A stretch of 64,000 nt of DNA from a virus (IMGVR_UViG_3300034065_000151:1-64000); one strand, 5' to 3'. Positions 41,941 to 63,898 are shown, numbered from the stretch's first letter. The notes: a model not told the origin generated them from the letters alone. Translations and numbers: made by a program.

Positions 41941-42285
41941 TTAATCGGGATTACGGATCATTGATTGTCGAGTGGTATAATCTTTATTACGACCTCGATT
42001 ATCTACAAAGCCAAAGGACTTATAAAATTTTTTGAGGCGGGTAAGAGAAGATGCACCAAATTCAATGGTTGGAGAAAGGGCAACTCTTTGTTTTGTGTTG
42101 TCTGCGTAAGCACAGACAGATTTCATAAATTTGGTACCAAGACCAGTTCTTTGTTTATCTTTATCAACTTTTATTATAGAAATAGTAATAGTACCTTTAT
42201 CTTCCCAGACAAATGCATCAATGCCAGGAGCAATAAAATTTTTACTAATATCACCTTCAGTAATAAATTGTTTAAAGGTTTTCAT
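41941..42285 (-). CDS. GNAT acetyltransferase with CTS-like leader
   Basis: MKTFKQFITE; I.V....QRTGLGT.FM, L..FYKSFGF. Confidence 0.75.
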   Translation of the reverse strand: MKTFKQFITEGDISKNFIAPGIDAFVWEDKGTITISIIKVDKDKQRTGLGTKFMKSVCAYADNTKQRVALSPTIEFGASSLTRLKKFYKSFGFVDNRGRNKDYTTRQSMIRNPD

Positions 42286-42827
42286 TCCAGTAAACCTTTT
42301 ACCTTAAGAATACTTGGATCCCAACAGATAAAGTGTACTGTATGACCATCTGACCCGGGAATTATAGTAAATCCTTGATAACCAAAAACTTGAAGTTTTT
42401 CTAAGTACTTTGCGGCTTCATGTCTATAAAAATCATACCATACCTGTTCTAATGCATTACGATAGATTGGATTATATTTACAAATAGAATCAGTAGCAAC
42501 ATCAATAGCTCTTGATTTATTCTGATCCCAATTATAAAGATCATCTGGATCAGGACATTTTGAAATAAGAATATGAATACCACGTCTAATAGTTTTTACT
42601 TTGTCTGTTAATATTTTAGATTTAACCATATTAACCTCCACTTCATGGATATACTTACCATAAATTTTTGCATCTTCTGGGTTATTAGTAAGATAAACAC
42701 CCGGACCACGAGTATCATGACCTTGACCTTTACCAAGATGATCTAATGAAAAACTTTCAATCTTAGTATTACTTCCATGGTACCAAATTTCTTTGGCTTC
42801 AATTAAATATTCTTTAAAAGTAATCAT
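42282..42827 (-). CDS. ADP-ribosyltransferase-like protein with CTS-like leader
   Basis: MITFKEYLIE; WYHGS..F....G.G..GPGVYLT....A..YG..GY.G. Confidence 0.7.
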   Translation of the reverse strand: MITFKEYLIEAKEIWYHGSNTKIESFSLDHLGKGQGHDTRGPGVYLTNNPEDAKIYGKYIHEVEVNMVKSKILTDKVKTIRRGIHILISKCPDPDDLYNWDQNKSRAIDVATDSICKYNPIYRNALEQVWYDFYRHEAAKYLEKLQVFGYQGFTIIPGSDGHTVHFICWDPSILKVKGLLE

Positions 42828-43555
42828 GGCTTCCATGCCTTTGCATATTCAAAAAAGTTTGATCCATCATGTTTCATATGGATAACATCTGCTCTGTCAA
42901 ATCTATAACACTTACTTGGATGTAATTTACCAGCATGCCCTAAGTGGGCACCACAATCAACAATTTTTAAAAGAAATTCATCATCCATTTTTGAAATTAA
43001 TTTTTTACCACCCTTAGCCCAGTACTCAATATCACCATCTTTTATTTTTTCTAAGTCTCTAACAGAAAGCCAAGCTTTAGCCATGTTAACTAATTCTTTT
43101 CCAATTGGTTTTAGTTTTTCATTTCTAATAGCATATTTTTCGTCTGCTTGATGCCATTTACTATTTTGATTAAGTAAATAATATAAAAACTCACCAATAC
43201 TATCTTCATCTGGAACAATATCATTAAAAGCAGTTCCAGTAAATTCAAATACAAAACCATACTGACCATAGACTTTAATATCTCTAGTACAATCTGATCC
43301 GGCCATATCACCACCAATACCATAAATCATTGCATATGGTAAATCAGTAGTTATATAAACCCTATCTTGTTGTGGTTTAAAATTTGACTTGGTTCTTTTA
43401 CCAGAATATTTAATTTCAGTATGAACTGGATCAAGTCCCTGTTCCCAAATACCTCGAGCAGCTTTTTCATTATTAGTTCCATGATAATAAACTTTAGCTT
43501 TATCAGATTCTCTAGGAGTAGCCATTTCAGCCACATATTGTTTAAATGTAATCAT
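42824..43555 (-). CDS. ADP-ribosyltransferase-like (H-Y type) protein with CTS-like leader
   Basis: MITFKQYVAE; YYHGT....I...GL..VYITT....A..YG. Confidence 0.65.
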   Translation of the reverse strand: MITFKQYVAEMATPRESDKAKVYYHGTNNEKAARGIWEQGLDPVHTEIKYSGKRTKSNFKPQQDRVYITTDLPYAMIYGIGGDMAGSDCTRDIKVYGQYGFVFEFTGTAFNDIVPDEDSIGEFLYYLLNQNSKWHQADEKYAIRNEKLKPIGKELVNMAKAWLSVRDLEKIKDGDIEYWAKGGKKLISKMDDEFLLKIVDCGAHLGHAGKLHPSKCYRFDRADVIHMKHDGSNFFEYAKAWKP

Positions 43556-44133
43556 AGGTGGAATAATATCTTTTCAATTTCATTAACAGTTTGATGATGT
43601 TTAAGTATATCAAAATGGCCAGTAGCAATAGGGATTACTAATTCTGCACATCCTGCTTCTTGCGAATTTATGCTTATAATGCCATCATTTGAACCATTAA
43701 TGAATGGATTGAACCCTTTGGTGCTAATAAGTGAAGCAAATTTACCGGTTATACGCGGTTGTACAGTCATCTTCTTAATTGTCCCACTTTGTGGGGTTAT
43801 ATCATCTAACACACCATAATTAGGTAGGAAATACTTAGTCGAGAACAAACTATCACTTCCACCAAATGGTGCTGATATAGTTACTAAATCTTTAACTTTA
43901 ATATTAGGTTGTAATGTTATAAGGTGGCCTAAGATACCACCGAGACTATGACCAACAATTGATATCTCAGTATCTGTAGGAATCTGTGATAATACTTCTT
44001 CAAGAATATTATCAATATTTTTAGATCCACTATAACTAATAAAAGTAGATTTATGAACAGAAAGCATCTCATCAATTAAGTTGAAAACTTCGGGACCACT
44101 TGCCATTCCATGTATCCAAACTATATGGTTCAT
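43552..44133 (-). CDS. alpha/beta hydrolase (lipase/esterase)
   Basis: IHG, GHSLGG, P.GGS, NDG, GH; no leader. Confidence 0.85.
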   Translation of the reverse strand: MNHIVWIHGMASGPEVFNLIDEMLSVHKSTFISYSGSKNIDNILEEVLSQIPTDTEISIVGHSLGGILGHLITLQPNIKVKDLVTISAPFGGSDSLFSTKYFLPNYGVLDDITPQSGTIKKMTVQPRITGKFASLISTKGFNPFINGSNDGIISINSQEAGCAELVIPIATGHFDILKHHQTVNEIEKILFHL

Positions 44134-44948
44134 TCGTCTATTTCTTCCTGGTCTATCTCTTTATAGTCTCGTATAGCATCACGTATAAAGTGCCATTGAT
44201 CTGCTTCAATCATTAATACAGGACCACCTACCCAAACCTCTTGTTCACCTAAATTATGATGAATATCTTTAGTTGTACAAACATCAAATTCTAAAGATTG
44301 TGGACTGTATGCCTTATAGATATCTGTTATAAATTGATTTGCAAATTCGTGAAGGGTACCCATATCATGAATTTCAAAAGCTTTTCTGAATACCTCAATT
44401 GCTTTTTCATCACCAGCTTCTAATTTACCAGCAAACTTTAAAAAACTTCTCCAACTTGATGGTTTAATTTCGGGAATATCTTCCCAATAGTCATTCATTC
44501 TGTTTATAGTGACAAATATACCAAATAAGGTTACTCTTGTTCTCCATAAATCATGACCACTACATACACCAATTTTTACACCATTATATGGAATAACAAC
44601 ATAAGGATCACCAAAACCTTGAGTATAATTAAGACGAGTTGAACAGACAAATGAGCGAGAACGTTTTGGGTATGCATTCATTAAAGGATTGTTATCCAAA
44701 ATGGTTGTATAGTAATTTGTTGTGTTTTCTGATTGACGACGAGTTAATGCTGGATTAACAGTATAGGCTTTATAGCCACCCAAACGTTGTGATTCACCAC
44801 GATACAATGGTTTATCTTTGATAGCCATCCATGTAGCATCAGAACATTTTGTTTTATAGATTTTAACAGCTTCATCAATGTCATATTTTTTATACATTGG
44901 GGTTTTTGTAATAGCTGCTTCGTCAAGGTATTCTTTAAATGTGATCAT
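44130..44948 (-). CDS. family A putative R-S-E ADP-ribosyltransferase with CTS-like leader
   Basis: MITFKEYLDE; LYRG..NYYT..YPKRSRSFVCST..EQEVW. Confidence 0.6.
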   Translation of the reverse strand: MITFKEYLDEAAITKTPMYKKYDIDEAVKIYKTKCSDATWMAIKDKPLYRGESQRLGGYKAYTVNPALTRRQSENTTNYYTTILDNNPLMNAYPKRSRSFVCSTRLNYTQGFGDPYVVIPYNGVKIGVCSGHDLWRTRVTLFGIFVTINRMNDYWEDIPEIKPSSWRSFLKFAGKLEAGDEKAIEVFRKAFEIHDMGTLHEFANQFITDIYKAYSPQSLEFDVCTTKDIHHNLGEQEVWVGGPVLMIEADQWHFIRDAIRDYKEIDQEEIDE

Positions 44949-45745
44949 GAAAGTTCTTCTTTAATATCTGCCCACATATTTAGCGAGATTAATAATACCG
45001 GACCACTTACCCACACTTCATTATTTCTGGCATCATGTGGAAAATCTTCAGTTGTGCAACATTCGAATCCTGTTTCTTCTGGACTATAAGCTGCCATGAC
45101 TGTTTCTAAGAAATCATTTCTGTGTTTATCTGCTTGTCCAAAACTGATAGCATGACCTAATCTGTTATAAGCAGCTTCACCACCAGCTTTAAGTAATTTA
45201 TCAAACTCAATCCATTTAGACCAGTCAGTTGAAGATAAATTTAAATCAGTGAATATAGTACGATTCATATTGGGTAAATTACGTTCTCTATTAAACAGAT
45301 TAATTTTAATATCCCAAATATCTTCTTCAGGTACTATCCCGATCTTAACTCCATTGTATGGAATCATTATCATAACATCATCAGTATTATGAGTGTACTG
45401 TTCAGCACGACCGAATGAGGTAGAAGCAATAAAACTTCTTGAACGTTTTGGATAGTCTTTCATACTAGGAATATTATCAAATATTAAAGTATAAAAGTTT
45501 GATGTATTTTGGCTAGCACGTTCTGTTTTAGATGGATCAACAGCTAAGCAACCAGTTTTATTTAATTTTTTAATTGTTGTTTCATTTCTTTCACCACGGT
45601 ACAACGGACGATCTTCACTGATCATCCACATTGCATCTCTGCAGTGACTCTTAATGGTTTTGATTGCGTCAGATAAATCAACGGGGCTATATTTCGGATC
45701 CCGTGTTTTGGCGCGCTCATTTAAAAAATCTTTAAAGGTTAGCAT
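44945..45745 (-). CDS. family A putative ADP-ribosyltransferase with CTS-like leader
   Basis: MLTFKDFLNE; LYRG..YPKRSRSFIASTS..NEVW. Confidence 0.6.
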   Translation of the reverse strand: MLTFKDFLNERAKTRDPKYSPVDLSDAIKTIKSHCRDAMWMISEDRPLYRGERNETTIKKLNKTGCLAVDPSKTERASQNTSNFYTLIFDNIPSMKDYPKRSRSFIASTSFGRAEQYTHNTDDVMIMIPYNGVKIGIVPEEDIWDIKINLFNRERNLPNMNRTIFTDLNLSSTDWSKWIEFDKLLKAGGEAAYNRLGHAISFGQADKHRNDFLETVMAAYSPEETGFECCTTEDFPHDARNNEVWVSGPVLLISLNMWADIKEELS

Positions 45746-45746
45746 T

Positions 45747-46070
45747 TTATTGACGTGTCAATTCTTTCCAGTTTACTAAAGGCATAGTAAGACGGATACT
45801 ACCCTTGCTGTCAATAATACTAACTTGTTCATTGTCACCAAGTTGAACTTTATAGTCACCAGCTTTAGCGATTACTTTTGGTTCTTCTTTTGATGGTTCT
45901 GAATTTGGTGGAGGTGTTTCTTGTTCAGTGCCTTCAGGACCTTGTTGTGAAGTAGCAGAACCCTGTGGCATGCCACCTTGAGTCTGTTTATCTAAACTAC
46001 CATTACCACCTGGCATATCATCTTCAGCAAGCTGGGTTGTGATTGCAGTAAGTTCTTTTAAAAAATTCAT
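45747..46070 (-). CDS. hypothetical protein, possible internal head protein
   Basis: MNFLKEL..LAE variant leader. Confidence 0.55.
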   Translation of the reverse strand: MNFLKELTAITTQLAEDDMPGGNGSLDKQTQGGMPQGSATSQQGPEGTEQETPPPNSEPSKEEPKVIAKAGDYKVQLGDNEQVSIIDSKGSIRLTMPLVNWKELTRQ

Positions 46071-46081: not shown

Positions 46082-46387
46082 TTATTTTGGGGTCTCGAAA
46101 TCGAGCGGGTTTTCATCCTTAGGGATAAAATATAACTGCTTGGCATCAGCACCATTTGGTGGATCAACTCTTGCAAACTTCTTATTCAAAAACGTGAATA
46201 GACTTATAATCCATGCACCACCAACAGTATCAATGACCTTATGCTTTTCTTCATGAGCTTTCATTAAGATATCATCTTTAACATCAAGAATTGAAACCAC
46301 ATCAGGAACACCTAATAATTTTTTAGCCATGGCAGATGCCTGAGCTTGTACTGCAATTTCAACTAGATACTGTTTGAATGTAATCAT
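46082..46387 (-). CDS. hypothetical protein with CTS-like leader
   Basis: MITFKQYLVE. Confidence 0.65.
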   Translation of the reverse strand: MITFKQYLVEIAVQAQASAMAKKLLGVPDVVSILDVKDDILMKAHEEKHKVIDTVGGAWIISLFTFLNKKFARVDPPNGADAKQLYFIPKDENPLDFETPK

Positions 46388-47190
46388 TTTCTTTCTCTAA
46401 CAACGCGTAAATTGGTAGCTTTAAGTTCAACTGTATCTGGATGATCTTCACCATCACGATCGAATTCAACAACAAAAGTCCTACCACCATCAATTGACTT
46501 ACCAACTTTAACAATAGTTGCTTCCCAACCCACTGCATCTTTTGGACCACTTTTAATCTTAACTCTTACACCCTTTTGGAATGGGGAAATATCATCAATA
46601 AATCCAGCAGATGCTTTTTTCTTTGCTACTGGCTTACCTTTGTTTTGTGATGACCAATGGCCTTTGTGAGCTTCATGTAATACTTTACCAGTACCTTCAT
46701 CAGCACCACCTTCTTCAGATGGGTCCCAAACACCAAAGCGACGATCGATACCAGGAACTTCTGCACTGACAGTCATCTTACCACCTTCCATACGGCCATT
46801 GAAACGCATCTTGGCAGCTTGGGTTGGATGGGATGTCTTAACAGCTTTCTTCCAATCATCAATATTCGTATATGTTACTTCTTCAGCAACTTTTAAAAGT
46901 TTTGCTTTAAAACCTTCAGCATATGAAGATACATCTTCTTTAACTTTTTTAGACTTGACTTTTTCACCAAGATCATCAATCTCTTGCTGCATCTTATTCA
47001 ATGTCTTTTCCAAATCTTTATAGGCTTTCTTCTCAGCAGTCAAATTCTTTAACTGACGCTGGAGCATGATAAACTTACGACGTTTATCAATAAGTGACTG
47101 GCGCATTAAGGCAATAGTATCCTCATTGGCTTTTGTAATAGCTGTTAGTTTGATAGCTTCATTAACTGGTTTGATATCACTGATTTTCAT
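46384..47190 (-). CDS. coiled-coil protein with C-terminal KOW/SH3-like region, possible head core protein
   Basis: MKISDIKPVNE leader; KGVRVKIKSGP..G.EATI; upstream AATAAATA. Confidence 0.55.
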   Translation of the reverse strand: MKISDIKPVNEAIKLTAITKANEDTIALMRQSLIDKRRKFIMLQRQLKNLTAEKKAYKDLEKTLNKMQQEIDDLGEKVKSKKVKEDVSSYAEGFKAKLLKVAEEVTYTNIDDWKKAVKTSHPTQAAKMRFNGRMEGGKMTVSAEVPGIDRRFGVWDPSEEGGADEGTGKVLHEAHKGHWSSQNKGKPVAKKKASAGFIDDISPFQKGVRVKIKSGPKDAVGWEATIVKVGKSIDGGRTFVVEFDRDGEDHPDTVELKATNLRVVRERK

Positions 47191-47222: not shown

Positions 47223-47921
47223 TTATGACAACAATTTAACCACATCTCGTGTGAAACCATCATTCCAATTGAGTGTGTAATATTCAGTACAATGGATCAT
47301 AATTTCCGGACCATCACCATCACCCATTGCTTTTTTCAAATCATGGTCGATATATGGGTTAACCTTTTCTAAATACTTTTTAATAATCTCGGCATACTCC
47401 TCGGAATCCACTGGTGGTAAGGAAGTACTTAATTGTAAAGCATGGGTGATATCACCATAGCCTTCACGATTTTCATCACTTCTGTTTTCTTTGCTTTTCT
47501 TATTATCAAAGAAACGGTAAGCATCAAGGATTTTTGGAGACCATACATATTTGTATTCTCCTATTGGGAATACTATAAAAGCATCTCCATATTCTTCGGC
47601 GACATGACGACGGCCAGTTGTAAATACGGCATTACTTCTAAATTTGATACCAAACTTACTTTTGAAATAATTATCCAATACTTCATGGATTTCTTCAGAT
47701 GAATCTGTTGGACCACGATTGGTTCTTACTTTTTGTGTTGAGAATGCAGGAAGTTGCATATGACCGGAAACCCCACGCCATAAAGTATGATCATCCATAT
47801 TATTATAAGAGAATCCACTTTCCTTTAGGAAAGGTTGACAGTTAGCCTTAATCAAATCAGCAACTTGTTGAGGAGTCTGCTTTTCTTCTTTTTCATTTAG
47901 GAATTGTTTAAATGTTATCAT
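47223..47921 (-). CDS. family B putative ADP-ribosyltransferase with CTS-like leader
   Basis: MITFKQFLNE; LWRG..KFG..FRS.AVFTTG..A.EYG..FPIG..WS..PEIMIHC. Confidence 0.6.
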   Translation of the reverse strand: MITFKQFLNEKEEKQTPQQVADLIKANCQPFLKESGFSYNNMDDHTLWRGVSGHMQLPAFSTQKVRTNRGPTDSSEEIHEVLDNYFKSKFGIKFRSNAVFTTGRRHVAEEYGDAFIVFPIGEYKYVWSPKILDAYRFFDNKKSKENRSDENREGYGDITHALQLSTSLPPVDSEEYAEIIKKYLEKVNPYIDHDLKKAMGDGDGPEIMIHCTEYYTLNWNDGFTRDVVKLLS

Positions 47922-48577
47922 AATAGTTCCAATACTCTTTCAGTAAATTTATCTGGTAGACGGCTATCATATCTCAATGCATAATAGCTATCACAGTGTA
48001 TCATTATTTCATGACGAGATACAATAGCTTTAGCTAATTCATTGCTTTTATATGGATTAACTTTTCTAAGGTACTCACCAATGTCATCAACATAATCATC
48101 ACTTTCTCTAGCAATATCTTTACCTAATACATCACACATATCAGGAATACCATCAGCTTTAGGTTGAGCAAAATATGAATAAGCATCTTCAATTTTAGGT
48201 GACCAAATAAATTTGAAATTACCAATAGGAAATACTAAAAATGCATGACCATAGTTCTCAGCAATTTTTTCACTGCCGGTGACAAAAAAGGCTTCTGATC
48301 TATATTCAACCCCAAACTTTTCATCAAAGTACTTATTGAGTTCATTATGAATATAGCGATTAGTATCAACCGGATCACGTTGCATCCAACGTGTTTGTTT
48401 TGAAAATATAGGAAGGTCTACATAATCACCAACTCCACGGAATAATGATGTATCATTAAGTTCTCGTGGATCAAAACCACTCTGTGCCAAAAATGAATGA
48501 CAGTGCTCAATTATTAATTCAGCAGCTACTTCTGGTGTTTGAGTTTCTTCATTTAAGAATTGGCGGAAGGTAATCAT
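47918..48577 (-). CDS. family B paralog
   Basis: MITFRQFLNE; LFRG..FVTGS..YG..FPIG..HEIMIHC. Confidence 0.6.
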   Translation of the reverse strand: MITFRQFLNEETQTPEVAAELIIEHCHSFLAQSGFDPRELNDTSLFRGVGDYVDLPIFSKQTRWMQRDPVDTNRYIHNELNKYFDEKFGVEYRSEAFFVTGSEKIAENYGHAFLVFPIGNFKFIWSPKIEDAYSYFAQPKADGIPDMCDVLGKDIARESDDYVDDIGEYLRKVNPYKSNELAKAIVSRHEIMIHCDSYYALRYDSRLPDKFTERVLELL

Positions 48578-49266
48578 AATAAGTCTAATACCTCTTTGGT
48601 AAAATCTATTTTTGCACGGTTACTCTTACCATAATATAAAGTATAGTAGTTTTCACAATGAATCATAATTTCAGAATCATGATCAATTGCTTTAGATAAA
48701 TTGGTATCTTTATAAGGATGTGTTTTTTCTAAATACTGTTTAATAGCTTTACAATAATTTCTGTTATTTGAATCTTCATCATGATCAATATATTCAATCT
48801 TATGACCAAATATTTCATGATAGTCATTCATAAATTCACGATTTTCAGCATCAAAGAATAGATAAGCATCCCTAATCTGTTCTGACCAAATATATTGATA
48901 ATTACCAATTGGGAATATTATATAAGCACACCCATAATCCCTGGCTAATGAACAGGAACTAGTAGCAAAGAATGCATTACTACGATAGTTAATTCCAAAT
49001 TGTTCCATAAAATATTCATTTAATGTTTCATGTTGAAGTTTACTTGTATCTTTTGGTTGACGATTCATTTCAACACGGTTTTTGTGGAATGCTGGAAGTT
49101 CTGCTTTGATCCCACGATATAATTCATGTTGTGGACCAAAACCTTTAAATCTACTTTCTTCAAGAAACTTGGCGCAGTCTTTTTTAATTTTTTCGGCTGC
49201 TTGCTCTGGTGTAAAGTCACCTAGTTCATTATCACCTTCATTTAGAAACTGTTTAAATGTAATCAT
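48574..49266 (-). CDS. family B paralog
   Basis: MITFKQFLNE; LYRG..FATSS..YG..FPIG..SEIMIHC. Confidence 0.6.
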   Translation of the reverse strand: MITFKQFLNEGDNELGDFTPEQAAEKIKKDCAKFLEESRFKGFGPQHELYRGIKAELPAFHKNRVEMNRQPKDTSKLQHETLNEYFMEQFGINYRSNAFFATSSCSLARDYGCAYIIFPIGNYQYIWSEQIRDAYLFFDAENREFMNDYHEIFGHKIEYIDHDEDSNNRNYCKAIKQYLEKTHPYKDTNLSKAIDHDSEIMIHCENYYTLYYGKSNRAKIDFTKEVLDLL

Positions 49267-49907
49267 ACAGTCTCCATAAATGGTTTTACTAGTTCATTAT
49301 AAACAGAACCATTAAGATCAAAAATATAATATTCACCACACTTAAACATAATTTCATTTCCTGCACGCAGGCATTCTTTAATATCAGTATTATGATACCA
49401 TCTAAAGTGTTTTAATTTAGCTAACATTCTGTCCCAAGCAGATTCCATTCTTTTATCACCACTTGGATCATTTTTATTATCTATTGGGGTAGCATCTTTA
49501 GTATCCCAAAAAAAGCTTGTCATATCTTTAGATTCTTTATTAATACCACTTATCCATTCAAATTTTCCAATGGGAAATATTGCATATACTTTACCATATA
49601 CAGTTGCTACAGCATTATGTCCACTGGCAAATATCCAATTACGGATTGGCTCACCAAATTTTTCAGTAAAGAATTCATTTAGTTTTTTATGGATATAATC
49701 AGGAGTGCTCATTGGTGACCAACGGGCTTCCCATTTATTGATAGCCCAATTCTTAGTACCTTTGAAAGAAGCACCACGGTACATTACTAAATTACCTTGG
49801 GAACCCTTAAGTTCACCAAGGTAAAAAGCACAATCCTTTTTAAATTTATCTAAGTCAAAGTCATCAAAGGCTTTATCTTCAGATAAGAACTGTTTGAAAG
49901 AAATCAT
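49263..49907 (-). CDS. family B paralog
   Basis: MISFKQFLSE; MYRG..FASG..YG..FPIG..NEIMFKC. Confidence 0.6.
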   Translation of the reverse strand: MISFKQFLSEDKAFDDFDLDKFKKDCAFYLGELKGSQGNLVMYRGASFKGTKNWAINKWEARWSPMSTPDYIHKKLNEFFTEKFGEPIRNWIFASGHNAVATVYGKVYAIFPIGKFEWISGINKESKDMTSFFWDTKDATPIDNKNDPSGDKRMESAWDRMLAKLKHFRWYHNTDIKECLRAGNEIMFKCGEYYIFDLNGSVYNELVKPFMETV

Positions 49908-50611
49908 TCTTCGCCAAAGGAACCTATATGTTGATTCTTAAGACGAGTAATACCATTTCTTAAGTTGATTAGGAATTGTTCGATATCACCAATAGTTTGG
50001 GTCATATCTTTCCACTGAGTTTCAAATTCAGGAGTCCATGTCTTAGCTGACATCATCAAGTTACGACGATAACTAGTTACTTTATTTTTATTGTTTGGAT
50101 CTACTCTATTAAGTTCACTAACTAAATTATTATTTTCTTCTTCAAGTTTGTCAACCAAAGCAACAAGTTTTTCATCATTGACTTTAACTTTTTTTAACCA
50201 ATAGGTTAAAAGACCATGTGCATCTTGATGTTTAGCAACATCGATAACAGTATTCAAACCTTCAATCATTTTGTCTAAACGGAATTCTTTACGATCGACA
50301 CGTGGTAAGTACTTAGCCAAGATTGGTTTGATAAAGGATTCAAGATAGTCTTCAAGAGCTTTTTCATTTTCCTTACGATCACCCCATTTACCACTTAAGC
50401 CTTTAATAGCCAAAGCTTTAGGGAAATCACCATCATTGTAATAACGATAATAAGCACGGAAGATAGTATCTTTCTTTGCTTTTTCACCAGCCGTTAAAAT
50501 ACCCTTATCATACATCCATGACATAAGAGCATCAACCTTTTTAAGGCGACCTTCCCAAGCACGACCGGCAGAGGAGGCTTCATTTATTTGGTGCAATTCT
50601 TTAAGTAACAT
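49904..50611 (-). CDS. helical hypothetical protein with variant leader
   Basis: MLLKELHQINE; YYRYYNDGD.P. Confidence 0.6.
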   Translation of the reverse strand: MLLKELHQINEASSAGRAWEGRLKKVDALMSWMYDKGILTAGEKAKKDTIFRAYYRYYNDGDFPKALAIKGLSGKWGDRKENEKALEDYLESFIKPILAKYLPRVDRKEFRLDKMIEGLNTVIDVAKHQDAHGLLTYWLKKVKVNDEKLVALVDKLEEENNNLVSELNRVDPNNKNKVTSYRRNLMMSAKTWTPEFETQWKDMTQTIGDIEQFLINLRNGITRLKNQHIGSFGEE

Positions 50612-55438: not shown

Positions 55439-55855
55439 TTAAGCAACAATTGCTGGAGCAGCTGCAACAGTAATTGAAACATCGCCTGATTCATTATGTG
55501 CTGTAACAATAGCACTGATGATATTACCTACATCGGTAGATTGGCAAAGGTATTCAGAAGCTGTTTGATCTGGGATGACACCAGTTGCTGAGCTTGACCA
55601 TGCATAAGTAAAGGTTGGAGCTGGAACACCAGTCCATGTACCATTACTAATAAACAATGGCATACCAACTTTAGCAGTACCTGTCATTCCAGGAGGAACT
55701 GTATTTACCGGGGCTGAACCAGGAGGAGTAACTGCTGGAGCACCATGGGCCCAATCAACTTTCCAGTCAGCTTTCGCATCTTCTTTCCAGTCAAGTTTAA
55801 AATCTTGCTTAACACCAGTAAGGCTTGTGTATAAGTTAGCAATGTTATTAGTCAT
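55439..55855 (-). CDS. Ig-like domain virion protein
   Basis: APVNT.PP...G.....GTWTG.P.PTFTY.W..Y....DVG..I...VTA.N. Confidence 0.7.
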   Translation of the reverse strand: MTNNIANLYTSLTGVKQDFKLDWKEDAKADWKVDWAHGAPAVTPPGSAPVNTVPPGMTGTAKVGMPLFISNGTWTGVPAPTFTYAWSSSATGVIPDQTASEYLCQSTDVGNIISAIVTAHNESGDVSITVAAAPAIVA

Positions 55856-55867
55856 GTAATTCCCCTA

Positions 55868-56461
55868 TTAAGAAAGGTTACCAGCAAGAGCAGTACCATA
55901 GCCTTGACCAGTTAATGTTTGTGAAGCCATATCGAAACGGATTGATAAATCAATAGTAACCGCTTCATTAGAATCATAGGACAATTCACCAAAGTTAGAT
56001 GAAGTAATCCAGCAACCTTCAATATTCCATTGTTCAACAATACCTTCATTACCATCTAGTTGTTGAAGAATCATACCGAATTTGTAATCGGAACCAGTTG
56101 CAGCAGTATTCAAGAATTGACCAGGAAGATCAGCACCAATCAAACGTTGTTGAGTTTGCAATTGACCTTGGATAGCAGATGATGCCAAACCAGTCATATC
56201 ATCTTCAACAGTTAATGTCAAAGGATCGAATACATATTTACCAGCAACATATGCTGTTGAGTTATAGCGATGAATAGCGATTTCATCAAATTTGATATTT
56301 GGACGAGTTACGTGTGTTAACTGTCTTGTAAGATCGCGAGAAGAACTACCAGGCACTAAGGAAGCTAAACCCGAGAAAATTACCTGCCAACGATATTTCT
56401 GCTTTGGTTGCAAAATACCAAATCCCGCAGCAGGAACTCCCATTTGGGATAGAGTAGCCAT
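55868..56461 (-). CDS. tail tube protein (gp19-like)
   Basis: QPK..YRW.V.F, RPN..F, Y.AGK, WNIEGCW, L.Y, IRFD; follows the sheath gene. Confidence 0.85.
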   Translation of the reverse strand: MATLSQMGVPAAGFGILQPKQKYRWQVIFSGLASLVPGSSSRDLTRQLTHVTRPNIKFDEIAIHRYNSTAYVAGKYVFDPLTLTVEDDMTGLASSAIQGQLQTQQRLIGADLPGQFLNTAATGSDYKFGMILQQLDGNEGIVEQWNIEGCWITSSNFGELSYDSNEAVTIDLSIRFDMASQTLTGQGYGTALAGNLS

Positions 56462-56519
56462 AATTAAATCTCCTTGTTTTTAATATATTAGTAATATATT
56501 ATTGTTTAATACGTGTACT

Positions 56520-56527
56520 TATTTATA
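56520..56527 (-). promoter_or_regulatory. T4-type late promoter TATAAATA
   Basis: Exact consensus upstream of the tube gene. Confidence 0.7.
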
Positions 56528-56555
56528 TAAATTTACACAAAATTTTGAGTTTTTT

Positions 56556-56584
56556 AAAAGGCCAAGATCAAACTTGGCCCTTTT
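56556..56584 (-). terminator. intrinsic terminator after the sheath gene
   Basis: GGCCAAG/CTTGGCC stem flanked by A/T runs. Confidence 0.65.
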
Positions 56585-56585
56585 C

Positions 56586-58448
56586 TTAACTTGGTAAGGC
56601 TGTAGTCAAGGCTAATACTCGGATTGGGATGTAGATGAATTCAGTTGAAGTAACTGCATGAATAGCAACATCCATAAACATTTCATTTGCTTGAACAACA
56701 CTTGGTGGGTTATTTGATGAATTACATAAAGTAACGAAGTCATACAAACCACGTAAAGCCATGATACCGTTCAAGAAGCCATCAGCAGATGCTTTAAGGT
56801 TACCTTGGGTAATAACATCATTTGGTTCAAATACGAATGGGAATGAACCCTTACGAAGTTGACGTTTGATGTACATAACAAGACGAACCACATTAATACG
56901 ATCTAATGCTGAAGCTGCACCTTGTGAAGTCTTATTACCCCAAACAATCATACCTTGTCCTGGGAAGAACACGATAGGATTAATATTTGTTGGATACTGA
57001 TAAAGATTATCACGTTGACCTTGATTCAAATATGACTGAGTGAATGTGGTTGCTGTACCAAGAGTACCGGATACATAACCCAAATCAGAAACACCAGTAA
57101 CTGTACCACGTGTCAAACCTGCTGGAGCAAACCAAACATATGATTGATTATCACTGAAAGCATAAGTTCTTAATGCAATACCAGATGGAGCGATCGCAAC
57201 TAATGTACCATCAAGATTTGCTGCAAGACCCCATGGGTAGTAATAACCAATATTTGAAGAAGCAGCACGAGCAGCAGTCAATGCCCAATTAGCAGCTTGA
57301 TCTGGTGTTAAGTTACATGGAACTTCAGAAATTGTAAAGGCTTCATCATTGATTTCATCTGAAAGAGCTAACATATCAGTTGCAACTTCTGGATAACCAG
57401 GACATACAATAAGATTGTACTCATACAATTCAGAACGGACCAATGTGTTGCTATTGATTTCTGCAGCTAATGCAGTAACAATTGAAACACGTTTAGCAGC
57501 ATCATTTGCACCCAATGGGTTAAACAAATTAACTTGTGATAAAGTGATCTGAAATTCTGCGTTCACACCAAATGGTACTGAACCTTCAGTAATAAGAAAA
57601 TCAATTTGACTGTTACTAAATGGTGAACCAGCTGTTGCTGTACCACTTGGACCAGATACTGAACCTGTTACTGAGAATGTTGCTGGAGTCGCACCAACAG
57701 TAATTGATGTACATACAACTGACCAGATTTCAGGAATAACAGCAGATGCTGGAGTAATACCAGTCATGTTGCCATTGCCAGTTCCAGTGAATGAACTTGG
57801 AGCATATACTAAATCAAACTGGAAATAGTCATCACCAGAATATGGTGTTGAACCAGCATTGATAGTAAAGTTAACAGTAGTAGAAGTAAATGGGGTACCA
57901 ACGATACCTGTACCGATAATACCAGCATTAACACCTTGAACAGTGAAAGCAGTTGAAGAATTCATTACAACTTGAATTGTATCTAATTGAACAAATGCTG
58001 AAGTTGCTGTAATACCAGTGATTGTACCATTACCTACACCAACAAAAGTAGGTGTGTCATATGTTGGAACACCAGCACTAATAAATGTTTTTGCTGCATC
58101 AGTAAGGTCAATGTTAGCACGGACAACATATGCAAGATTACCAACTCCTATGAATTGATTCAATGCAAACAATCCGTATTCATTACGTGCATCACCGTGG
58201 AATTGATTTCCAGATGAATCGGCCATGAAATGTGGATTACCGTATAATTGAACGCTCTGACCAAGTGAAGTAACTGTGCGGATTACACCGTTTTCAGTCG
58301 TACCTGCAGCTGATGAAACACCATCAGGCTGTAATTTATTTGCCTGAGTAGCTATGAAAAGTAATGGAACAGTAGGTGCACTGGCCGGAATATAAAAACT
58401 CTGATCCGTTACGGGTACTGAAACTCCAGGTGATACAAGTGTAGCCAT
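56586..58448 (-). CDS. contractile tail sheath protein (gp18-like)
   Basis: LVSPGV, WFAPAG.TRG, RD.LY...INPI, GNKT, LDRINV.RL, FEPND, EFIYIP. Confidence 0.95.
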   Translation of the reverse strand: MATLVSPGVSVPVTDQSFYIPASAPTVPLLFIATQANKLQPDGVSSAAGTTENGVIRTVTSLGQSVQLYGNPHFMADSSGNQFHGDARNEYGLFALNQFIGVGNLAYVVRANIDLTDAAKTFISAGVPTYDTPTFVGVGNGTITGITATSAFVQLDTIQVVMNSSTAFTVQGVNAGIIGTGIVGTPFTSTTVNFTINAGSTPYSGDDYFQFDLVYAPSSFTGTGNGNMTGITPASAVIPEIWSVVCTSITVGATPATFSVTGSVSGPSGTATAGSPFSNSQIDFLITEGSVPFGVNAEFQITLSQVNLFNPLGANDAAKRVSIVTALAAEINSNTLVRSELYEYNLIVCPGYPEVATDMLALSDEINDEAFTISEVPCNLTPDQAANWALTAARAASSNIGYYYPWGLAANLDGTLVAIAPSGIALRTYAFSDNQSYVWFAPAGLTRGTVTGVSDLGYVSGTLGTATTFTQSYLNQGQRDNLYQYPTNINPIVFFPGQGMIVWGNKTSQGAASALDRINVVRLVMYIKRQLRKGSFPFVFEPNDVITQGNLKASADGFLNGIMALRGLYDFVTLCNSSNNPPSVVQANEMFMDVAIHAVTSTEFIYIPIRVLALTTALPS

Positions 58449-58574
58449 TTTAATAACTCCCTATGAATATGGTTATAATGCTAGAAAGAGCTGTAAATAG
58501 TTCAATTTCTATCATTCTTACTTATATTTAGAAAAAAAGACTAAAATTCTTCAAAAAACTTGAGGACTTTCAGC

Positions 58575-59321
58575 TTATCCGGTAATTGTGGTATTGCCAA
58601 AACTGAAACCTGGTGCAAACGGAATTGATTGTCCATTCTCATCAAACTCATTAAACTGTAATCCAGCTGTATCACCCATCCTGATTGTGATTGATCTGAC
58701 AATTTCATTTTTAATATCCATTGGGGCAGATATATAAATTGGTATCTCAAATGCTAAGGACCATAAAATAATTCTACGATCGCCACCAGGAGGATAGTTT
58801 TCTTCATTTGTCATCCCGGTTAATTCAACTGTAGTAATCTTTGTCCAATCAAAAGCCACATCATTAATCTGTATCTGTAATACTGGATCAAACATCATCA
58901 TCAATTGTTCTAATATCTGATGCATTTGCTGTTGATTAGAAGCATATATCGATAACTCACAATTCATAATATATGGAATCGGCATTACTCTTTCAGCAAC
59001 TCTTAAATCATCAGGGAATACTCCACCTTCAGGTAAGTAAGTTTTACGATCTATTACACCAATACCTTTTCTATGTGGAGCCATATTAAGACCTGTCATA
59101 GATAAAGCCATTTGTGGTAATGAGAAAGGTTTATTCTGGGTATTACCAGCACCAATAGCAGCAACCACTCGGTCACGACTACCAAGACTAATTGGTACGG
59201 TCATCATTTCTGCTTCACCACAAGTACCTTTACCTGTTTGAACTTGTAAACCTGCAAAGACATTTGCTACTTGTAATAAGTATTTTCTGATTTGACCATC
59301 ATAATAATAAAAATTAATCAT
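58575..59321 (-). CDS. tail sheath stabiliser/terminator (gp15-like)
   Basis: YYYD.QIR.Y...F, VPI, LP.M, P.PY....ELSI....Q..QI.EQ....F.P. Confidence 0.8.
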   Translation of the reverse strand: MINFYYYDGQIRKYLLQVANVFAGLQVQTGKGTCGEAEMMTVPISLGSRDRVVAAIGAGNTQNKPFSLPQMALSMTGLNMAPHRKGIGVIDRKTYLPEGGVFPDDLRVAERVMPIPYIMNCELSIYASNQQQMHQILEQLMMMFDPVLQIQINDVAFDWTKITTVELTGMTNEENYPPGGDRRIILWSLAFEIPIYISAPMDIKNEIVRSITIRMGDTAGLQFNEFDENGQSIPFAPGFSFGNTTITG

Positions 59322-61228
59322 ACTTTCCCTCCTAATGGGACTCGTGTTGCTGATTGCATAATACTTCTGATTGAAGGTTTTGCAGATGTGTATAAACCAC
59401 GTTTGTCTTGTTCTAAGAATAACCAAGCATTTTTAACTGTTGAGAAACGATATAAACGTGGTGCAATAACAGTTTCAGGTGGATAATATAAACGGAAATA
59501 AGCACCATCAGCAACACCTGCGATTGGTGGTAAAGTATAACCTTCAGTATATGGTTCTCCATTTTTTGGCAAACCATCTTCAATATACAAGTTAGGTGTG
59601 CTTCCAACTGGAGCAGATAGTGGTTGACCAGATGGATTTCTAGGAGGTGGAGCAATATACTCTACAATACCTGCAATTTCCTGTCTATCATCGGAACCAA
59701 CTTCTGGAACAGCATCAGCTGCATTCTTGATTATCTCTTCTGTATTGGTTAATGGTAATGTATCAATTTGCTGACCTACACCATTTGTAAACAATGCATC
59801 AGCAATTAAATATTTCTGAGTATCCATCGTACCAAAAATATCTCTGGTTTCCTGTGATGGTAATGCTTGCTGACCTGAAAAACGATAAGTGGTTGGGTTA
59901 TACAATGGACCAAATCCAGAACTCTGCCAAGCAGCATCAGTTACTTCCAAGAACTTACGGATAGGTAATAAGTTCTGATCATATTGCATCTCTGGTATAA
60001 CTTCAATAATATCTCCAACAACTATAGGACGACCTAAAGCTTTTACCATAGTTGCAAAGGAAACAACAAATGTATATTGTTCGAGAATATTAAGACCGAA
60101 GCGGGCAAGGTCACTAACAGAGTCTGCTGGTGAATATTGGGCTTTAAGTGGGATTGGAACCAATCCATATTCACGATCACGATTTTCATTAAAGAATAAA
60201 TCTTGAATATTATTAATTGTGGTTGGCATTTCATCAAGTACATCAAATGCAACTACTTCCCAGCTACCAGTTCCAGTGAACATGGTAGGGGTTACCATAA
60301 TAGCTTTAACTTTTAATAAAGTATTAAGATTAAGAGTTTGTGGTAATGGTGATTGAACCATATTATATAAACCAACACGTTTCCAATTATAATTAAGTGG
60401 AACCATAAACATATCACCAACAGCAAAGGGAGTCGATCCAGAAGCTATTGTTAAATTAAGGAAGGTACTATAAAATGGAATATCAGATGTCAAGGTTCCC
60501 AAATTAATAGTTGTACTATCAGGCAAGGTAGCATACACATTAAAGGTCATTGAAGAAATTGCAACTATATTAATAACACTTTGAGTTGCATCAGAACCAA
60601 TACCATTAGTAGTAAGTACACCATTACCGGTTCCAGAAAAGAAAGTAATGCCGGGAGATACATCTCCAGAAGTAATTTCAACTTTAACCTGTTGTGCAAA
60701 TTGACCAGGGTTATTTGATTGTGTTAAATTGATAGCACCAACACTTACCCATTTTTGAGCTTCTGGTTCATATTCAGTACGACCATTAGCAAGTAATTTA
60801 ATACCAAAGTCAACACCGACATAAGCAGTATTAGTAACTGCAGAACCTTGTTGGGAAGACCACCATGATTGTCCTGGTTGATTTAAACCAGTTAATGGAT
60901 AACCTGGATATGAGGTAGAACCAATTATGCGGCCTTGTGATAATACAGAACCATTTCCTTGTTGGTGAATACCAAGTAAAGGATAGATATTAAGGGGAGC
61001 ACCTGAAATATTAATAGTTTCAGCAACATAAGTCTGCTGATTGAGTGCTTCATTTTGTGCACATATATCTGGGTTAATACCTGTAATCTGCCAGTCACCA
61101 ATCGGTAAGGCAGGTGGAACATATGGTTTTAATGCAGTATTATTCAAACCAGTTTGAGCTGGAGGTGCATTGGGATTGTTTAAACTACCCCCACCATTTT
61201 CACAAGGTAATGTTGGTTGTTGTATCAT
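59318..61228 (-). CDS. neck protein (gp14-like) with inserted domains
   Basis: IQDL.F.ENRDR.Y, DL.RFGL, LGR..VGD.IE; position before gp15. Confidence 0.7.
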   Translation of the reverse strand: MIQQPTLPCENGGGSLNNPNAPPAQTGLNNTALKPYVPPALPIGDWQITGINPDICAQNEALNQQTYVAETINISGAPLNIYPLLGIHQQGNGSVLSQGRIIGSTSYPGYPLTGLNQPGQSWWSSQQGSAVTNTAYVGVDFGIKLLANGRTEYEPEAQKWVSVGAINLTQSNNPGQFAQQVKVEITSGDVSPGITFFSGTGNGVLTTNGIGSDATQSVINIVAISSMTFNVYATLPDSTTINLGTLTSDIPFYSTFLNLTIASGSTPFAVGDMFMVPLNYNWKRVGLYNMVQSPLPQTLNLNTLLKVKAIMVTPTMFTGTGSWEVVAFDVLDEMPTTINNIQDLFFNENRDREYGLVPIPLKAQYSPADSVSDLARFGLNILEQYTFVVSFATMVKALGRPIVVGDIIEVIPEMQYDQNLLPIRKFLEVTDAAWQSSGFGPLYNPTTYRFSGQQALPSQETRDIFGTMDTQKYLIADALFTNGVGQQIDTLPLTNTEEIIKNAADAVPEVGSDDRQEIAGIVEYIAPPPRNPSGQPLSAPVGSTPNLYIEDGLPKNGEPYTEGYTLPPIAGVADGAYFRLYYPPETVIAPRLYRFSTVKNAWLFLEQDKRGLYTSAKPSIRSIMQSATRVPLGGKV

Positions 61229-62115
61229 TCGTCACTTTCTTCATAATCTTTCGGATCATGTTTTACATACCATTGCTTTGGGATATATTCTTTTACAAAT
61301 TCTTCTAGGGCATCATTTTGTGCCATACGACGAAGAAGTCCTTCAAATCTCAAAAAGGCACATTTACCTTGTACCCAGATTTCATTATCGTGACCACCAA
61401 ATGAAGCAGAACCTGAAACAACATGACTAAAACCGTTCTTGGTAGGATCCATTCCATTTTCAAAAAGATCATATAGTGTTCTAAACCCATGAGTTTTAAA
61501 TGCTTGAAGGTATTTTTTCCATTCTTCACGTTTACCGGTTTCAGTATTTAAATCATCTATTAATTCAAAGGTAACTCTTTTTAAACAGCTACATAAAGCT
61601 GCATAGTTTTTATGAGCCATATTATATTCAGACAAATGCTCACGCTTATTTGCGGCCATAATAAGGTCTTGAACATCAGACATAAAACCATCCATACTTC
61701 TACCGGTCATGCGATCGATATAATCAAAGCCATACCATAAATCATCACCAGCAATGATACCAATTTCTGAACCATCTGCTGGAATAATTAAATGGACATT
61801 ACCAAAACCACCTGCCATATCATTGTTAGTACTACAAATATAAGACTTAGAACGTTTCGGATAATCTTTCCATGCAGGATTGTTATCCATCCAAATTGTG
61901 TAATAGTTTACAGTATTGGCGGATTCCCGATTTAAACTGTTAGTATCAAAAACCCCCATTTTTATGCTCATTGGCATACCACGAAATATAGGACTCTTTT
62001 TAATCTGTGGTAGATATTTTGAGGCATTAGTTTCACACCACTTCACAAACAGATCGGGTTCCATCTCGGTGTGGGCAAACTGGTCTTCATTTAAAAATTG
62101 TTTGAATGTTATCAT
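61225..62115 (-). CDS. family A putative ADP-ribosyltransferase with CTS-like leader
   Basis: MITFKQFLNE; IFRGM..NYYTIWMDNNP.W..YPKRSKSYICST..NEIWVQG. Confidence 0.62.
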   Translation of the reverse strand: MITFKQFLNEDQFAHTEMEPDLFVKWCETNASKYLPQIKKSPIFRGMPMSIKMGVFDTNSLNRESANTVNYYTIWMDNNPAWKDYPKRSKSYICSTNNDMAGGFGNVHLIIPADGSEIGIIAGDDLWYGFDYIDRMTGRSMDGFMSDVQDLIMAANKREHLSEYNMAHKNYAALCSCLKRVTFELIDDLNTETGKREEWKKYLQAFKTHGFRTLYDLFENGMDPTKNGFSHVVSGSASFGGHDNEIWVQGKCAFLRFEGLLRRMAQNDALEEFVKEYIPKQWYVKHDPKDYEESDE

Positions 62116-62957
62116 TATCTATCCAACATGTATTTAGTCATAAAATCTTCGAGTACTTCATTGTCACTTTCTTCAAGGCCATCTTCACTATATTTAAGGA
62201 TGCCACAAGTACCTTGAATCCATACTTCTTTGCTAGGACCTGGATTTTTATAGGTTGCTCCAGTTTCAACATCAAAGCCATTTTGTAATGGGTTGAAACC
62301 TAACTGCATTAAATCAAATAAGTTGTCACAGCCACTACGTTCAAAAGCAAGTAAGAAGTGTTCAAAATCTTTTTTTCTTGTTAGGTTTTTGGTAAGGTTT
62401 TTTAATGTTACTTTTTTCAAACACTTAACCAATGCTTTATAATCCATTTGAGCATTTTTAAATTCTTCTGTTTCTTCACTATCTAATTTCATTACCAGAT
62501 GAATCCAGCTATTAAAATTATCAAGGGTGGAATAGTTACCCATACCCATTTTCTTAAACAAGTATTTAAAGGACATCCACAAATCATATTCTGGACAGAT
62601 ACCAATCTTGGCATTATCAGCAGGGATAATTAAAAACGTATTATCATTACCATAGCTACTAGCAGTAGTTAAATTGGTAGAACAGATAAAAGACTTAGAA
62701 CGCTTCGGATACTCTTTCCAAGCTGGATTGTTATCAATCCAAATTGTGTAATAATTTAAAGAGTTAGCAGACTTACGGTTTAAACCATTAGTATCTGAAA
62801 TTCCCACTTTGGTTTCACCAGGCATACCACGATAGATATGTTTGTCCTTAGCACCATTTAAATAGGCACTAGCATTAGTTTCACACCACTTAACAAACTC
62901 TTCTGGTGAAACATCTCTAGTAATATCTCCATTAATAAACTGTTTAAATGATATCAT
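62115..62957 (-). CDS. family A paralog (leader lacks Glu10)
   Basis: MISFKQFING; IYRGM..YPKRSKSFICST..KEVWIQG. Confidence 0.62.
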   Translation of the reverse strand: MISFKQFINGDITRDVSPEEFVKWCETNASAYLNGAKDKHIYRGMPGETKVGISDTNGLNRKSANSLNYYTIWIDNNPAWKEYPKRSKSFICSTNLTTASSYGNDNTFLIIPADNAKIGICPEYDLWMSFKYLFKKMGMGNYSTLDNFNSWIHLVMKLDSEETEEFKNAQMDYKALVKCLKKVTLKNLTKNLTRKKDFEHFLLAFERSGCDNLFDLMQLGFNPLQNGFDVETGATYKNPGPSKEVWIQGTCGILKYSEDGLEESDNEVLEDFMTKYMLDR

Positions 62958-63898
62958 TTAAAACTCACATGATCAAAGTGTTTCTTTAGGAATTCATTAA
63001 TAACATCATGTTGTTTAATTATCTTGCCACCCATTGGATTTTCTTCTTCATCTTCTTCAGTCTCATCATTTTCATCTTCACTCTCAATTTTAAGAATGGC
63101 ACAATTTCCCTGAATCCAAACCTCTTGATTTGTTGGGGGTGGACGATATCCATGACCAGTATAAACTTTAAACTTGTTTACTTTTGGATCAAAGCCTTTC
63201 TGGAATACTTCATACATACTTGTGTAGCCATATTTTTCAAAGACTTTAACAGCATCCATAAATCCGCCTTTTGTTTTTTGATTGGCTTCTTTAAGTGACT
63301 CTAAAGTAACTCGCTTTAAACAACTACATAAGGCGGCATAATCATTTTCTATGTTCTTATAATCTGGATCATTCTCACCTAATACTGCTTCAAACATTTT
63401 TTGAAAATCATTCATATATTCTTCTAATGTTCCACGATATTTTGGATCAGCATCAAATATTTTATCCAACTGTTTAAAGCCATACCATAAATCTATCTCA
63501 GGACATACACCCATTTTGGCATCATCTGCCGGGATAATTAAAAAAGTACTTCCATAACCCATCTCGGAAGCACTATTAAAAGAAGTAGCACAACATAAGG
63601 ATTTGGAACGCTTTGGATAATTTTTCCATTCAGGATTATTATCCATCCAAATAGTATAGTAGTTATAAGTGTTCAATGATTTACGGTTCAATTTGTTAGT
63701 ATCACAAAGACCAATCTTAATATCTTCTGGCATACCACGAAAAAGCATTTTATCTTTGGAACCCTTAAGATAATGAGTAGCATTGGTCTCGCACCATTTT
63801 ACAAAGGCTTCAGGGCTTATAGATTGTGTAACCCCTTTAGCTGGGCCATATCTACTTGCTGATATGTCTTCATTTAAGAACTGTTTAAATGTTATCAT
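62954..63898 (-). CDS. family A paralog
   Basis: MITFKQFLNE; LFRGM..YPKRSKSLCCAT..QEVWIQG. Confidence 0.62.
   Translation of the reverse strand: MITFKQFLNEDISASRYGPAKGVTQSISPEAFVKWCETNATHYLKGSKDKMLFRGMPEDIKIGLCDTNKLNRKSLNTYNYYTIWMDNNPEWKNYPKRSKSLCCATSFNSASEMGYGSTFLIIPADDAKMGVCPEIDLWYGFKQLDKIFDADPKYRGTLEEYMNDFQKMFEAVLGENDPDYKNIENDYAALCSCLKRVTLESLKEANQKTKGGFMDAVKVFEKYGYTSMYEVFQKGFDPKVNKFKVYTGHGYRPPPTNQEVWIQGNCAILKIESEDENDETEEDEEENPMGGKIIKQHDVINEFLKKHFDHVSFK

Follow-up and report, generated by a model that had tools for sequence, protein, structure and literature searches.

Between positions 41941 and 63898 of the 64,000-nucleotide (nt) viral sequence analysed here (IMGVR_UViG_3300034065_000151:1-64000, hereafter the window), which belongs to a contig of 140,766 nt, fifteen open reading frames (ORFs) begin with forms of one ten-residue leader, most commonly M-I-T-F-K-Q-F-L-N-E. 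To judge from sequence, this leader is likely to be a capsid-targeting and processing tag of the T4 type, borne by a large set of head-packaged enzymes of an uncultured, T4-related giant phage.

The leader and its likeness to the T4 capsid-targeting sequence

Scanned in six frames, the window and the whole contig show M-x-[TS]-F-[KR]-x-[FY]-[LIV] at the initial methionine of exactly fifteen ORFs, all on the minus strand within 41941-63898, with start codons at 42285, 42827, 43555, 44948, 45745, 46387, 47921, 48577, 49266, 49907, 51965, 52684, 62115, 62957 and 63898. The left ends of these ORFs equal all 15 coordinates given in a preliminary description of the window, which had also reported the leader to be limited to this cluster within the window; it is, and it occurs nowhere else on the 140.8-kb contig either. 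Phenylalanine at position 4, phenylalanine or tyrosine at position 7 and leucine, isoleucine or valine at position 8 are present in all fifteen leaders. Residue 10 is glutamate in 14 of them, as had been described, the exception being ORF 62115-62957, in which codon 10 is GGA (Gly10) rather than the GAA or GAG of the others, a single G/A difference. A degenerate DNA pattern encoding M-x-[ST]-[FY]-x-x-[FY]-[LIVMF]-x-E has 14 matches on the contig, each at a tagged start, where by our own estimate about 0.02 would be expected by chance; the reversed control pattern has none.

Inside the leader synonymous codons vary freely (TTT/TTC, CAA/CAG, ATT/ATA/ATC, TTA/CTA/CTT) and the 40 nt upstream of the tagged genes are unrelated to one another, so that the leader is conserved at the peptide level, and a repeat at the DNA or RNA level (gene conversion, a recombination cassette or a translation signal) is ruled out by the same two observations. 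Leader identity is near 100% while the bodies that follow are only 24–45% identical.

The sequence that the leader resembles is the capsid-targeting sequence (CTS) that T4 internal proteins carry (Mullaney & Black 1996, reviewed in PMC9026906, PMC3012670 and PMC8442874), M-K-T-Y-Q-E-F-I-A-E (PMC8442874). By T4 genetics, targeting depends mainly on residues 4 and 7 and processing on residues 8 and 10; the prohead protease gp21 cuts after Glu in L/I-x-E, and Asp10 stops cleavage, not targeting (PMC9026906). These four functional positions (4, 7, 8 and 10) are the most conserved positions of the leader described here, and in T4 itself the same degenerate pattern matches only ipII, ipIII and gp61.1, with no control matches. 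Gene 61.1 (NC_000866, 18966-19130), which lies beside the primase gene 61, encodes a 54-residue hypothetical protein that begins M-K-T-F-K-E-F-I-K-E, the environmental form of the CTS, and may by its sequence be an unrecognised small internal protein.

The contig encodes a T4-type portal, a gp23-type major capsid protein and a prohead protease of the gp21 type. The protease gene (contig 73511-74125) is a Peptidase_S77/gp21 homologue (PF03420, 88.4 bits, above the cut-off; phrog_207, E 4.7e-54) whose product aligns to T4 gp21 (5jbl) with the His and Ser motifs G-E-L-N-H-P and S-S-R-G intact. A comparison of the leader with the N-termini of the head genes, already suggested in the preliminary description, found similar early [LIV]-x-E sites in seven head-module genes, among them those for the major capsid protein and for the protease, as against only 14 of about 150 genes that belong neither to the head module nor to the cargo cluster. 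In the protease the site is L-I-E at residue 8, as has been noted for T4 gp21; the major capsid protein has L-Q-E-39 just ahead of the part aligned with residue 12 of mature T4 gp23*. A second, weak Peptidase_S77 match (contig 85946-86347; 23 bits, below the cut-off) lies beside recombination genes.

The tagged genes belong to the late neck, tail and terminase operons. They are packed in same-strand operons, with 4-nt overlaps at most junctions both with one another and with neck genes; a group of three sits between two neck genes, and the other twelve are flanked by the tube and head-closure genes on one side and by the terminase on the other. Of the 18 copies of the T4 late-promoter motif TATAAATA on the contig, 15 lie at most 90 nt upstream of a same-strand gene, mostly a structural one. 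The copy at 55371-55378 (minus strand) is 35 nt upstream of gene 54051-55343, and the tightly coupled genes downstream of that gene include the cargo block 52684-41941.

Tagged genes and their cargo domains

Comparison of the bodies by BLASTP places nine of the tagged genes in two families. Family A has five members, two of them adjacent (44130-44948 and 44945-45745) and three in a tandem trio wedged between the two neck genes (61225-62115, 62115-62957 with Gly10, and 62954-63898); family B consists of four tandem genes (47223-47921, 47918-48577, 48574-49266 and 49263-49907). The two families are related to each other with an hhalign probability of 98.3%. In family A, Arg 45 (in Y-R-G) and Cys 94 (consensus C-S-T-x) are present in at least 90% of the sequences and Glu 245 is invariant, whereas in family B the invariant residues are Arg 51-Gly 52 (again Y-R-G) and Glu 199; a catalytic role for these residues is putative. 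The AlphaFold2 (AF2) model of family A has a predicted local distance difference test (pLDDT) score of 88. In both AF2 models, of families A and B, the leader appears as a flexible extension with pLDDT of at most 50 for residues 1–10, and the first 10–12 residues are of low confidence and lie outside the fold.

Structure comparison of the two models by VIA-align against about 48,000 chains returned ADP-ribosyltransferase (ART)-fold proteins as a large share of the matches for family A, with best Z scores of only 6.4 and 5.6, and as most of the matches for family B, with best Z scores of only 6.0 and 4.9. The ART-fold proteins matched by the two families include Arr, diphtheria toxin, cholix toxin, DarT, PARPs, Tpt1, TccC3 and AvrPphF ORF2. 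A Foldseek search of the family A model against the PDB gave nothing at E ≤ 0.001, and the family B profile had no matches among PDB sequences. At E ≤ 0.01 Pfam likewise gave nothing for families A and B, for ORFs 42824-43555 and 46082-46387, or for three ORFs with variant N-termini described below, beyond weak matches below the cut-off.

Two further tagged genes, also on the minus strand, encode candidate ART-like bodies. ORF 42282-42827 (181 residues; its longest form begins at 42836, upstream of the leader methionine at 42827) resembles ART-PolyVal (PF18760, E 2.9e-6, under the curated cut-off) and has a leader-bearing homologue on L057, a 14-kb contig. ORF 42824-43555 (243 residues) has a DarT/DUF4433/DUF3990-like ART-fold body according to an Atlas structure search, which at a template modelling (TM) score of about 0.5 is a lead only; the ORF shares homology with one stretch of Tunturi_5 gp205, which bears the annotation ADP-ribosyltransferase exoenzyme toxin. 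On these models the nine ORFs of families A and B look like one ART-fold superfamily, and about 11 of the 15 cargoes look ART-like.

The remaining four cargoes, all on the minus strand, are a GNAT acetyltransferase, a ParB_N-like protein, a P-loop kinase and a 91-residue body without a family match (46082-46387). The acetyltransferase (41941-42285; 114 residues; leader M-K-T-F-K-Q-F-I-T-E) matches Acetyltransf_10 (E 1.3e-7), phrog_11975 and part of the 3925-position profile phrog_10691, and has a homologous segment in gp63 of Agrobacterium phage Atu_ph07. The kinase (51962-52684; 240 residues) is of the AAA_33 or zeta-toxin-like type and has an orthologue in Ralstonia phage RsoM2USA (RsoM2USA_254) that bears the leader too. 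The ParB_N-like assignment (51567-51965; 132 residues) comes from an Atlas structure search with TM scores of 0.5–0.55 to ParB_N clusters and is a lead only. The PHROG profile phrog_12810 joins family A with the kinase, and phrog_11975 joins the acetyltransferase with family B; in these profiles the cargo domains are internal parts of long polyvalent proteins.

The same leader thus stands on no fewer than four clearly distinct folds (ART-like, GNAT, P-loop kinase and ParB_N-like), and because unrelated folds bear it the leader is still modular. The claim of fifteen diverse and unrelated cargoes, on the other hand, was too broad: unrelated folds are present, but the bodies fall into about seven sequence classes, with 11 of the 15 ART-like and with families A and B related to each other.

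Leaders in other phages and genomic surroundings

The phage has no nucleotide-level relative among GenBank phages, in that a megablast search with the 22-kb region gave no match. By its capsid protein the nearest cultured phage is RsoM2USA (344 kb, 63% identity), followed by Stenotrophomonas, Xanthomonas (XacN1, 51%) and Rak2-like jumbo phages. In RsoM2USA this leader heads ORFs 81, 89, 254 (the kinase orthologue), 385 and 404, and one-residue variants of it head ORFs 255, 90 and 403. Its ORFs 403–405 are family A genes at the syntenic neck position, corresponding to the trio at 61225-63898. ORF89, whose product begins M-K-T-F-K-Q-F-L-S-E, is among ten virion bands that were assigned from mass spectrometry and abundance (PMC8504454). 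When family A homologues were collected by their bodies alone (35–45% identity), the leader was found to be kept, with Phe 4 and Lys 5 in at least 90% of the sequences.

Atu_ph07 carries a tandem array of ART-like and GNAT proteins, gp54–gp63 (NC_042013, 43293-50592), in which gp55, gp56, gp58 and gp59 belong to family A, gp57 and gp60–62 to family B, gp54 is a two-domain fusion and gp63 combines a GNAT with a family B domain. Proteins gp54–gp62 share their own leader, M-[RK]-W-x-Q-L-x-E, and gp63 has a variant; all end in L-x-E. The exact pattern of this leader has 10 matches in the 490-kb genome (gp54–62 and the distant gp408), with none for the control. According to Table S5 of the virion study (PMC6102473), all ten exact carriers are in the virion proteome, with 3–15 unique peptides each, where 131 of 714 proteins were found overall; in the accessible portions of that paper gp54–gp63 are listed only as hypothetical virion proteins, with no discussion of a leader or CTS. 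The fused proteins gp54 and gp63 have one leader each, at the N-terminus of the polypeptide and not one per domain; to judge from these N-termini, the leader follows the polypeptide and not the domain. Further lineage-specific leaders, all ending in [LI]-x-E at residues 8–10, are present on family A and B homologues of Salicola phage SCTP-2 and of the 484-kb uncultured phage LR756508.

The leader was also found in at least 119 IMG/VR stretches, mostly at ORF starts, and among those listed 81 hold a homologue of some gene of the contig, in many cases one of the T4-type core genes. On contig L057 seven genes between the sheath and portal genes bear the tag, the GNAT and ART-PolyVal homologues among them, and T4-like cyanophages such as P-TIM68 have a family of about 165 residues with M-K-T-F-K-E-F-L-[DE]-E. 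By these sequence matches the leader is widespread in uncultured T4-like phages and cyanophages, and since T4 gp61.1 has it as well, the system is not peculiar to this phage. This form of the leader is absent from XacN1, RAS14, CBB, Phosso, Vibrio phage 2.275.O, KVP40 and Tunturi_5, and because XacN1 lacks it the XacN1 virion proteome is not usable here.

Three more ORFs of the array (minus strand) have variant N-termini, just as the preliminary description had it: a 107-residue ORF at 45747-46070 (MNFLKEL, with L-K-E ending at residue 6), whose orthologue in the relative L127 begins M-L-L-R-E-L; a 268-residue ORF at 46384-47190 (MKISDIKPVNE, with V-N-E ending at residue 11); and a 235-residue ORF at 49904-50611 (M-L-L-K-E-L, with L-K-E at 5 and I-N-E at 11). 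The last of these resembles, at its N-terminus, the head-core ORF at contig 71382-72164 (M-K-L-L-K-E-L), which is located between the protease and capsid genes. Starts like M-L-L-K-E-L also occur in RsoM2USA and L127 and may represent a second leader class. One gene inside the array, at 43552-44133 (minus strand), has no leader and overlaps both its neighbours by 4 nt; it encodes an alpha/beta-hydrolase of lipase-like type (PGAP1, Lipase_3). Its identification as the counterpart of the XacN1 virion lipase was considered and dropped, no homologue having been found in the phage collection.

The contig also encodes sheath, tube, sheath stabiliser and neck proteins and the large terminase. A neck or virion structural gene at 59318-61228 (minus strand), homologous to RsoM2USA_402, has a 4-nt overlap with the family A genes. 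The tail genes between the two cargo blocks (54051-59321, minus strand) encode the sheath stabiliser (58575-59321), the sheath (56586-58448), the tube (55868-56461) and a tube-like protein (54051-55343), together with a 138-residue ORF. At 53148-54048 there are two tandem paralogues that both match phrog_218 ('head closure'), the second of which also weakly matches endonuclease PHROGs. Directly downstream of the cargo block is the nuclease part of the large terminase (40985-41869, minus strand). The terminase gene looks split, as this ORF and ORF 38891-40036 both match one 523-residue ORF of L127 (76% and 64% identity), with a 222-residue ORF (40012-40680) between the two parts; the split could be due to an intron, intein or homing-endonuclease insertion.

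Two other shared N-termini were noted on the contig. M-N-L-Y-x-x-H-x-x-P-E-S-I-H-G-H begins about ten ORFs (window 51055-51570; contig 76622-76876 and 102112-106407), one of them within the cargo array and one beside the portal region. M-K-V-A-E-L-F-E-A-R, with two early [LIV]-x-E sites, begins the ORFs at contig 75975-76562 and 103671-104039, the former adjoining the portal gene and the latter inside the array at contig 102112-106407.

Proposed route of the tagged proteins, alternatives and implications

In the mechanism that we propose, the leader would be this phage's own version of the CTS, and the tagged proteins would be made late, alongside the neck, tail and terminase proteins. The aromatic residues 4 and 7 would dock each tagged protein onto the prohead scaffolding core, the gp21-type protease would then cut the leader off after Glu10, at [LIV]-x-E, and the mature enzymes would remain in the head and exit with the DNA at infection. 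By analogy with T4, the Gly10 protein (ORF 62115-62957) is predicted to be targeted but uncut at that site. The steps of this mechanism differ in strength. Incorporation of the tagged proteins into the virion is very likely; their location in the head together with cleavage after Glu10 is fairly probable; and ejection with the DNA into the host, proposed by analogy with T4, has somewhat better than even chances. We infer the head rather than another place in the virion, the cleavage at residue 10, the ejection, with any delivery ahead of transcription, and the targets of the enzymes. The view of the preliminary description, in which the leader is a capsid-targeting address label on separate cargo genes, is well supported by the T4 ipII/ipIII motif, the gp21-type protease, the late operons and the Atu_ph07 and RsoM2USA proteomes, the comparative evidence being the strongest; what it overstated was the diversity of the cargo and the uniqueness of the system.

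Several points weigh against this reading. The whole case for this uncultured phage is built on sequence and relatives, and the contig represents only about 40% of the estimated genome according to its IMG/VR record. Five of its capsid relatives (XacN1, RAS14, CBB, Phosso and Vibrio phage 2.275.O) are without the leader. The ten Atu_ph07 carriers are not ten independent trials, because nine are clustered paralogues, gp408 being at a separate locus, and the published virion proteomes cannot tell head from tail or neck and give no N-termini. The ART assignment of families A and B is based on modest structural scores (Z ≤ 6.4) with no Pfam family at E ≤ 0.01. Finally, the predicted mature cargoes are mostly acidic or neutral (isoelectric points 4.9–7.8), unlike the basic internal proteins of T4.

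The main alternative is that the leader docks proteins to a part of the virion outside the DNA-filled head, such as the neck, collar, whiskers or tail, in which case there would be neither cleavage at Glu10 nor injection. The position of three tagged genes between neck genes and of the other twelve after the tail-tube genes is in keeping with this, the Atu_ph07 and RsoM2USA proteomes show virion association only, and Atu_ph07 has whisker-like structures. We nevertheless regard docking outside the head as unlikely, for the cargo folds depend on NAD, acetyl-CoA or ATP and require cytoplasmic substrates, the leader has a gp21 cleavage motif at its end and agrees with the T4 head-targeting sequence at the four functional residues, and head-core genes of the same phage have similar early [LIV]-x-E N-termini.

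It is more improbable still that the leader marks its proteins for some other process, as a recognition site for a modifying enzyme of the kind that acts on ribosomally synthesized and post-translationally modified peptides (RiPPs), a degron, a pro-peptide that silences toxic enzymes or a translation signal in the RNA. In favour of this, ARTs could harm the cell that produces them. Against it, no radical S-adenosylmethionine (SAM) gene is present on the contig, which is incomplete; the freely varying synonymous sites and differing upstream DNA speak against a signal in RNA or DNA; the leader, as read from its sequence, has no hydrophobic core for secretion; and it co-occurs with T4-type head genes, as in the 81 of at least 119 IMG/VR stretches mentioned above. 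Least probable of all is a shared N-terminus merely inherited by an expanded paralogue family without a sorting role, which would suit the nine of 15 cargoes that form one superfamily and the 11 or so that look ART-like but is disfavoured by the same leader on GNAT, P-loop kinase and ParB_N-like bodies, by its near-identity above far more divergent bodies, by the different lineage-specific leaders on family A and B homologues elsewhere and the single leader on two-domain fusions, and by the occurrence of the same domains inside long polyvalent proteins in PHROG profiles.

For a head-targeting tag, the closest known system is that of the T4 internal proteins (IPs). IPII and IPIII, and IPI with them, have a ten-residue leader with Met 1, Thr 3, an aromatic residue at 4, Phe 7, Ile or Leu 8 and Glu 10, ending in the gp21 site L/I-x-E; in both systems the leader stands on mutually unrelated bodies in the presence of a gp21-type protease, and one search pattern retrieves both sets. 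The differences are that 15 canonical copies (18 with the variants) are present here as against three in T4, that the cargo is enzyme-like, of 10–35 kDa and mostly not basic rather than consisting of small basic anti-restriction proteins, and that the genes, known here from sequence alone, lie in late neck, tail and terminase operons and not in the T-even ip loci. T4 Alt is an ART that travels in the head, is matured by the prohead protease and enters the host together with the DNA (PMC9026906, PMC9503650), as is predicted for the cargoes here, but families A and B, for which Pfam gave no match at E ≤ 0.01, are not detectable Alt or VIP2 homologues and are far shorter than Alt, and the single ART gene of T4 Alt contrasts with eleven ART-like genes here. 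Gene context had led to the proposal that phage ARTs are packaged in heads (Iyer et al. 2022, PMC9503650).

The polyvalent proteins (Iyer et al. 2017, PMC5512222; PMC9503650) share ART-PolyVal, GNAT and kinase-like domain types with this set and are likewise predicted to be packaged and injected; they combine 2–15 effector domains in one large polypeptide, whereas here each gene encodes one domain, in 101–314 residues and with its own tag, and there is no giant polypeptide and no MuF or portal fusion. The Atu_ph07 array (Attai et al. 2018, PMC6102473), for which electrospray ionization tandem mass spectrometry (ESI-MS/MS) places all the proteins in virions, has family A, family B and GNAT homologues in tandem with a shared leader ending in L-x-E, and differs in that the leader is its own, of eight residues. 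In phiKZ-like giant phages such as SPN3US, ejection proteins have N-terminal propeptides that a gp21-related protease removes behind a Glu and that are believed to direct proteins into the prohead, but these are mostly 80–130 residues long and end in A/S-x-E (PMC5694885), in contrast to the short T4-type leader described here.

Established knowledge includes the CTS, the packaging of foreign proteins that it drives and the variety of internal proteins among T-even phages ("at least 10 reported"; PMC3012670, PMC9026906, PMC12373910). Since the mechanism has been known since the 1990s, the advance lies in scale, cargo type and phylogenetic reach: the finding probably extends the known T4 mechanism rather than revealing a new one, and is distinguished by copy number, by enzyme cargo and by the lineage-specific leaders of relatives. 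A full-text search on the leader strings found no paper describing the leader of this contig or that of Atu_ph07. A wider proposition, to which we give about even odds, is that in T4-related jumbo phages a short N-terminal address code, specific to each lineage and co-evolving with the head core and protease of each phage, serves to load a dozen or more individual enzymes, ADP-ribosyltransferases for the most part, into the capsid, so that many targets would be struck ahead of any phage transcription. Three versions of such a code are at hand, F-K-Q-F-L-x-E here, W-x-Q-L-x-E in Atu_ph07 and K-[DN]-L-L-x-E in the 484-kb phage.

Should the tag act as it does in T4, the genome alone would suffice to list the "first-strike" proteins that an uncultured phage injects. 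Most of them would in this case be ADP-ribosyltransferase-like enzymes, joined by an acetyltransferase and a kinase, all of them candidates for a rapid takeover of the host or for counter-defence. Comparing the lineages also accounts for a block of Atu_ph07 virion proteins that were labelled hypothetical in 2018, and suggests a way in which modular cargo is exchanged in T4-related jumbo phages. It provides, besides, short tags with which foreign proteins might be loaded into the heads of non-model phages.

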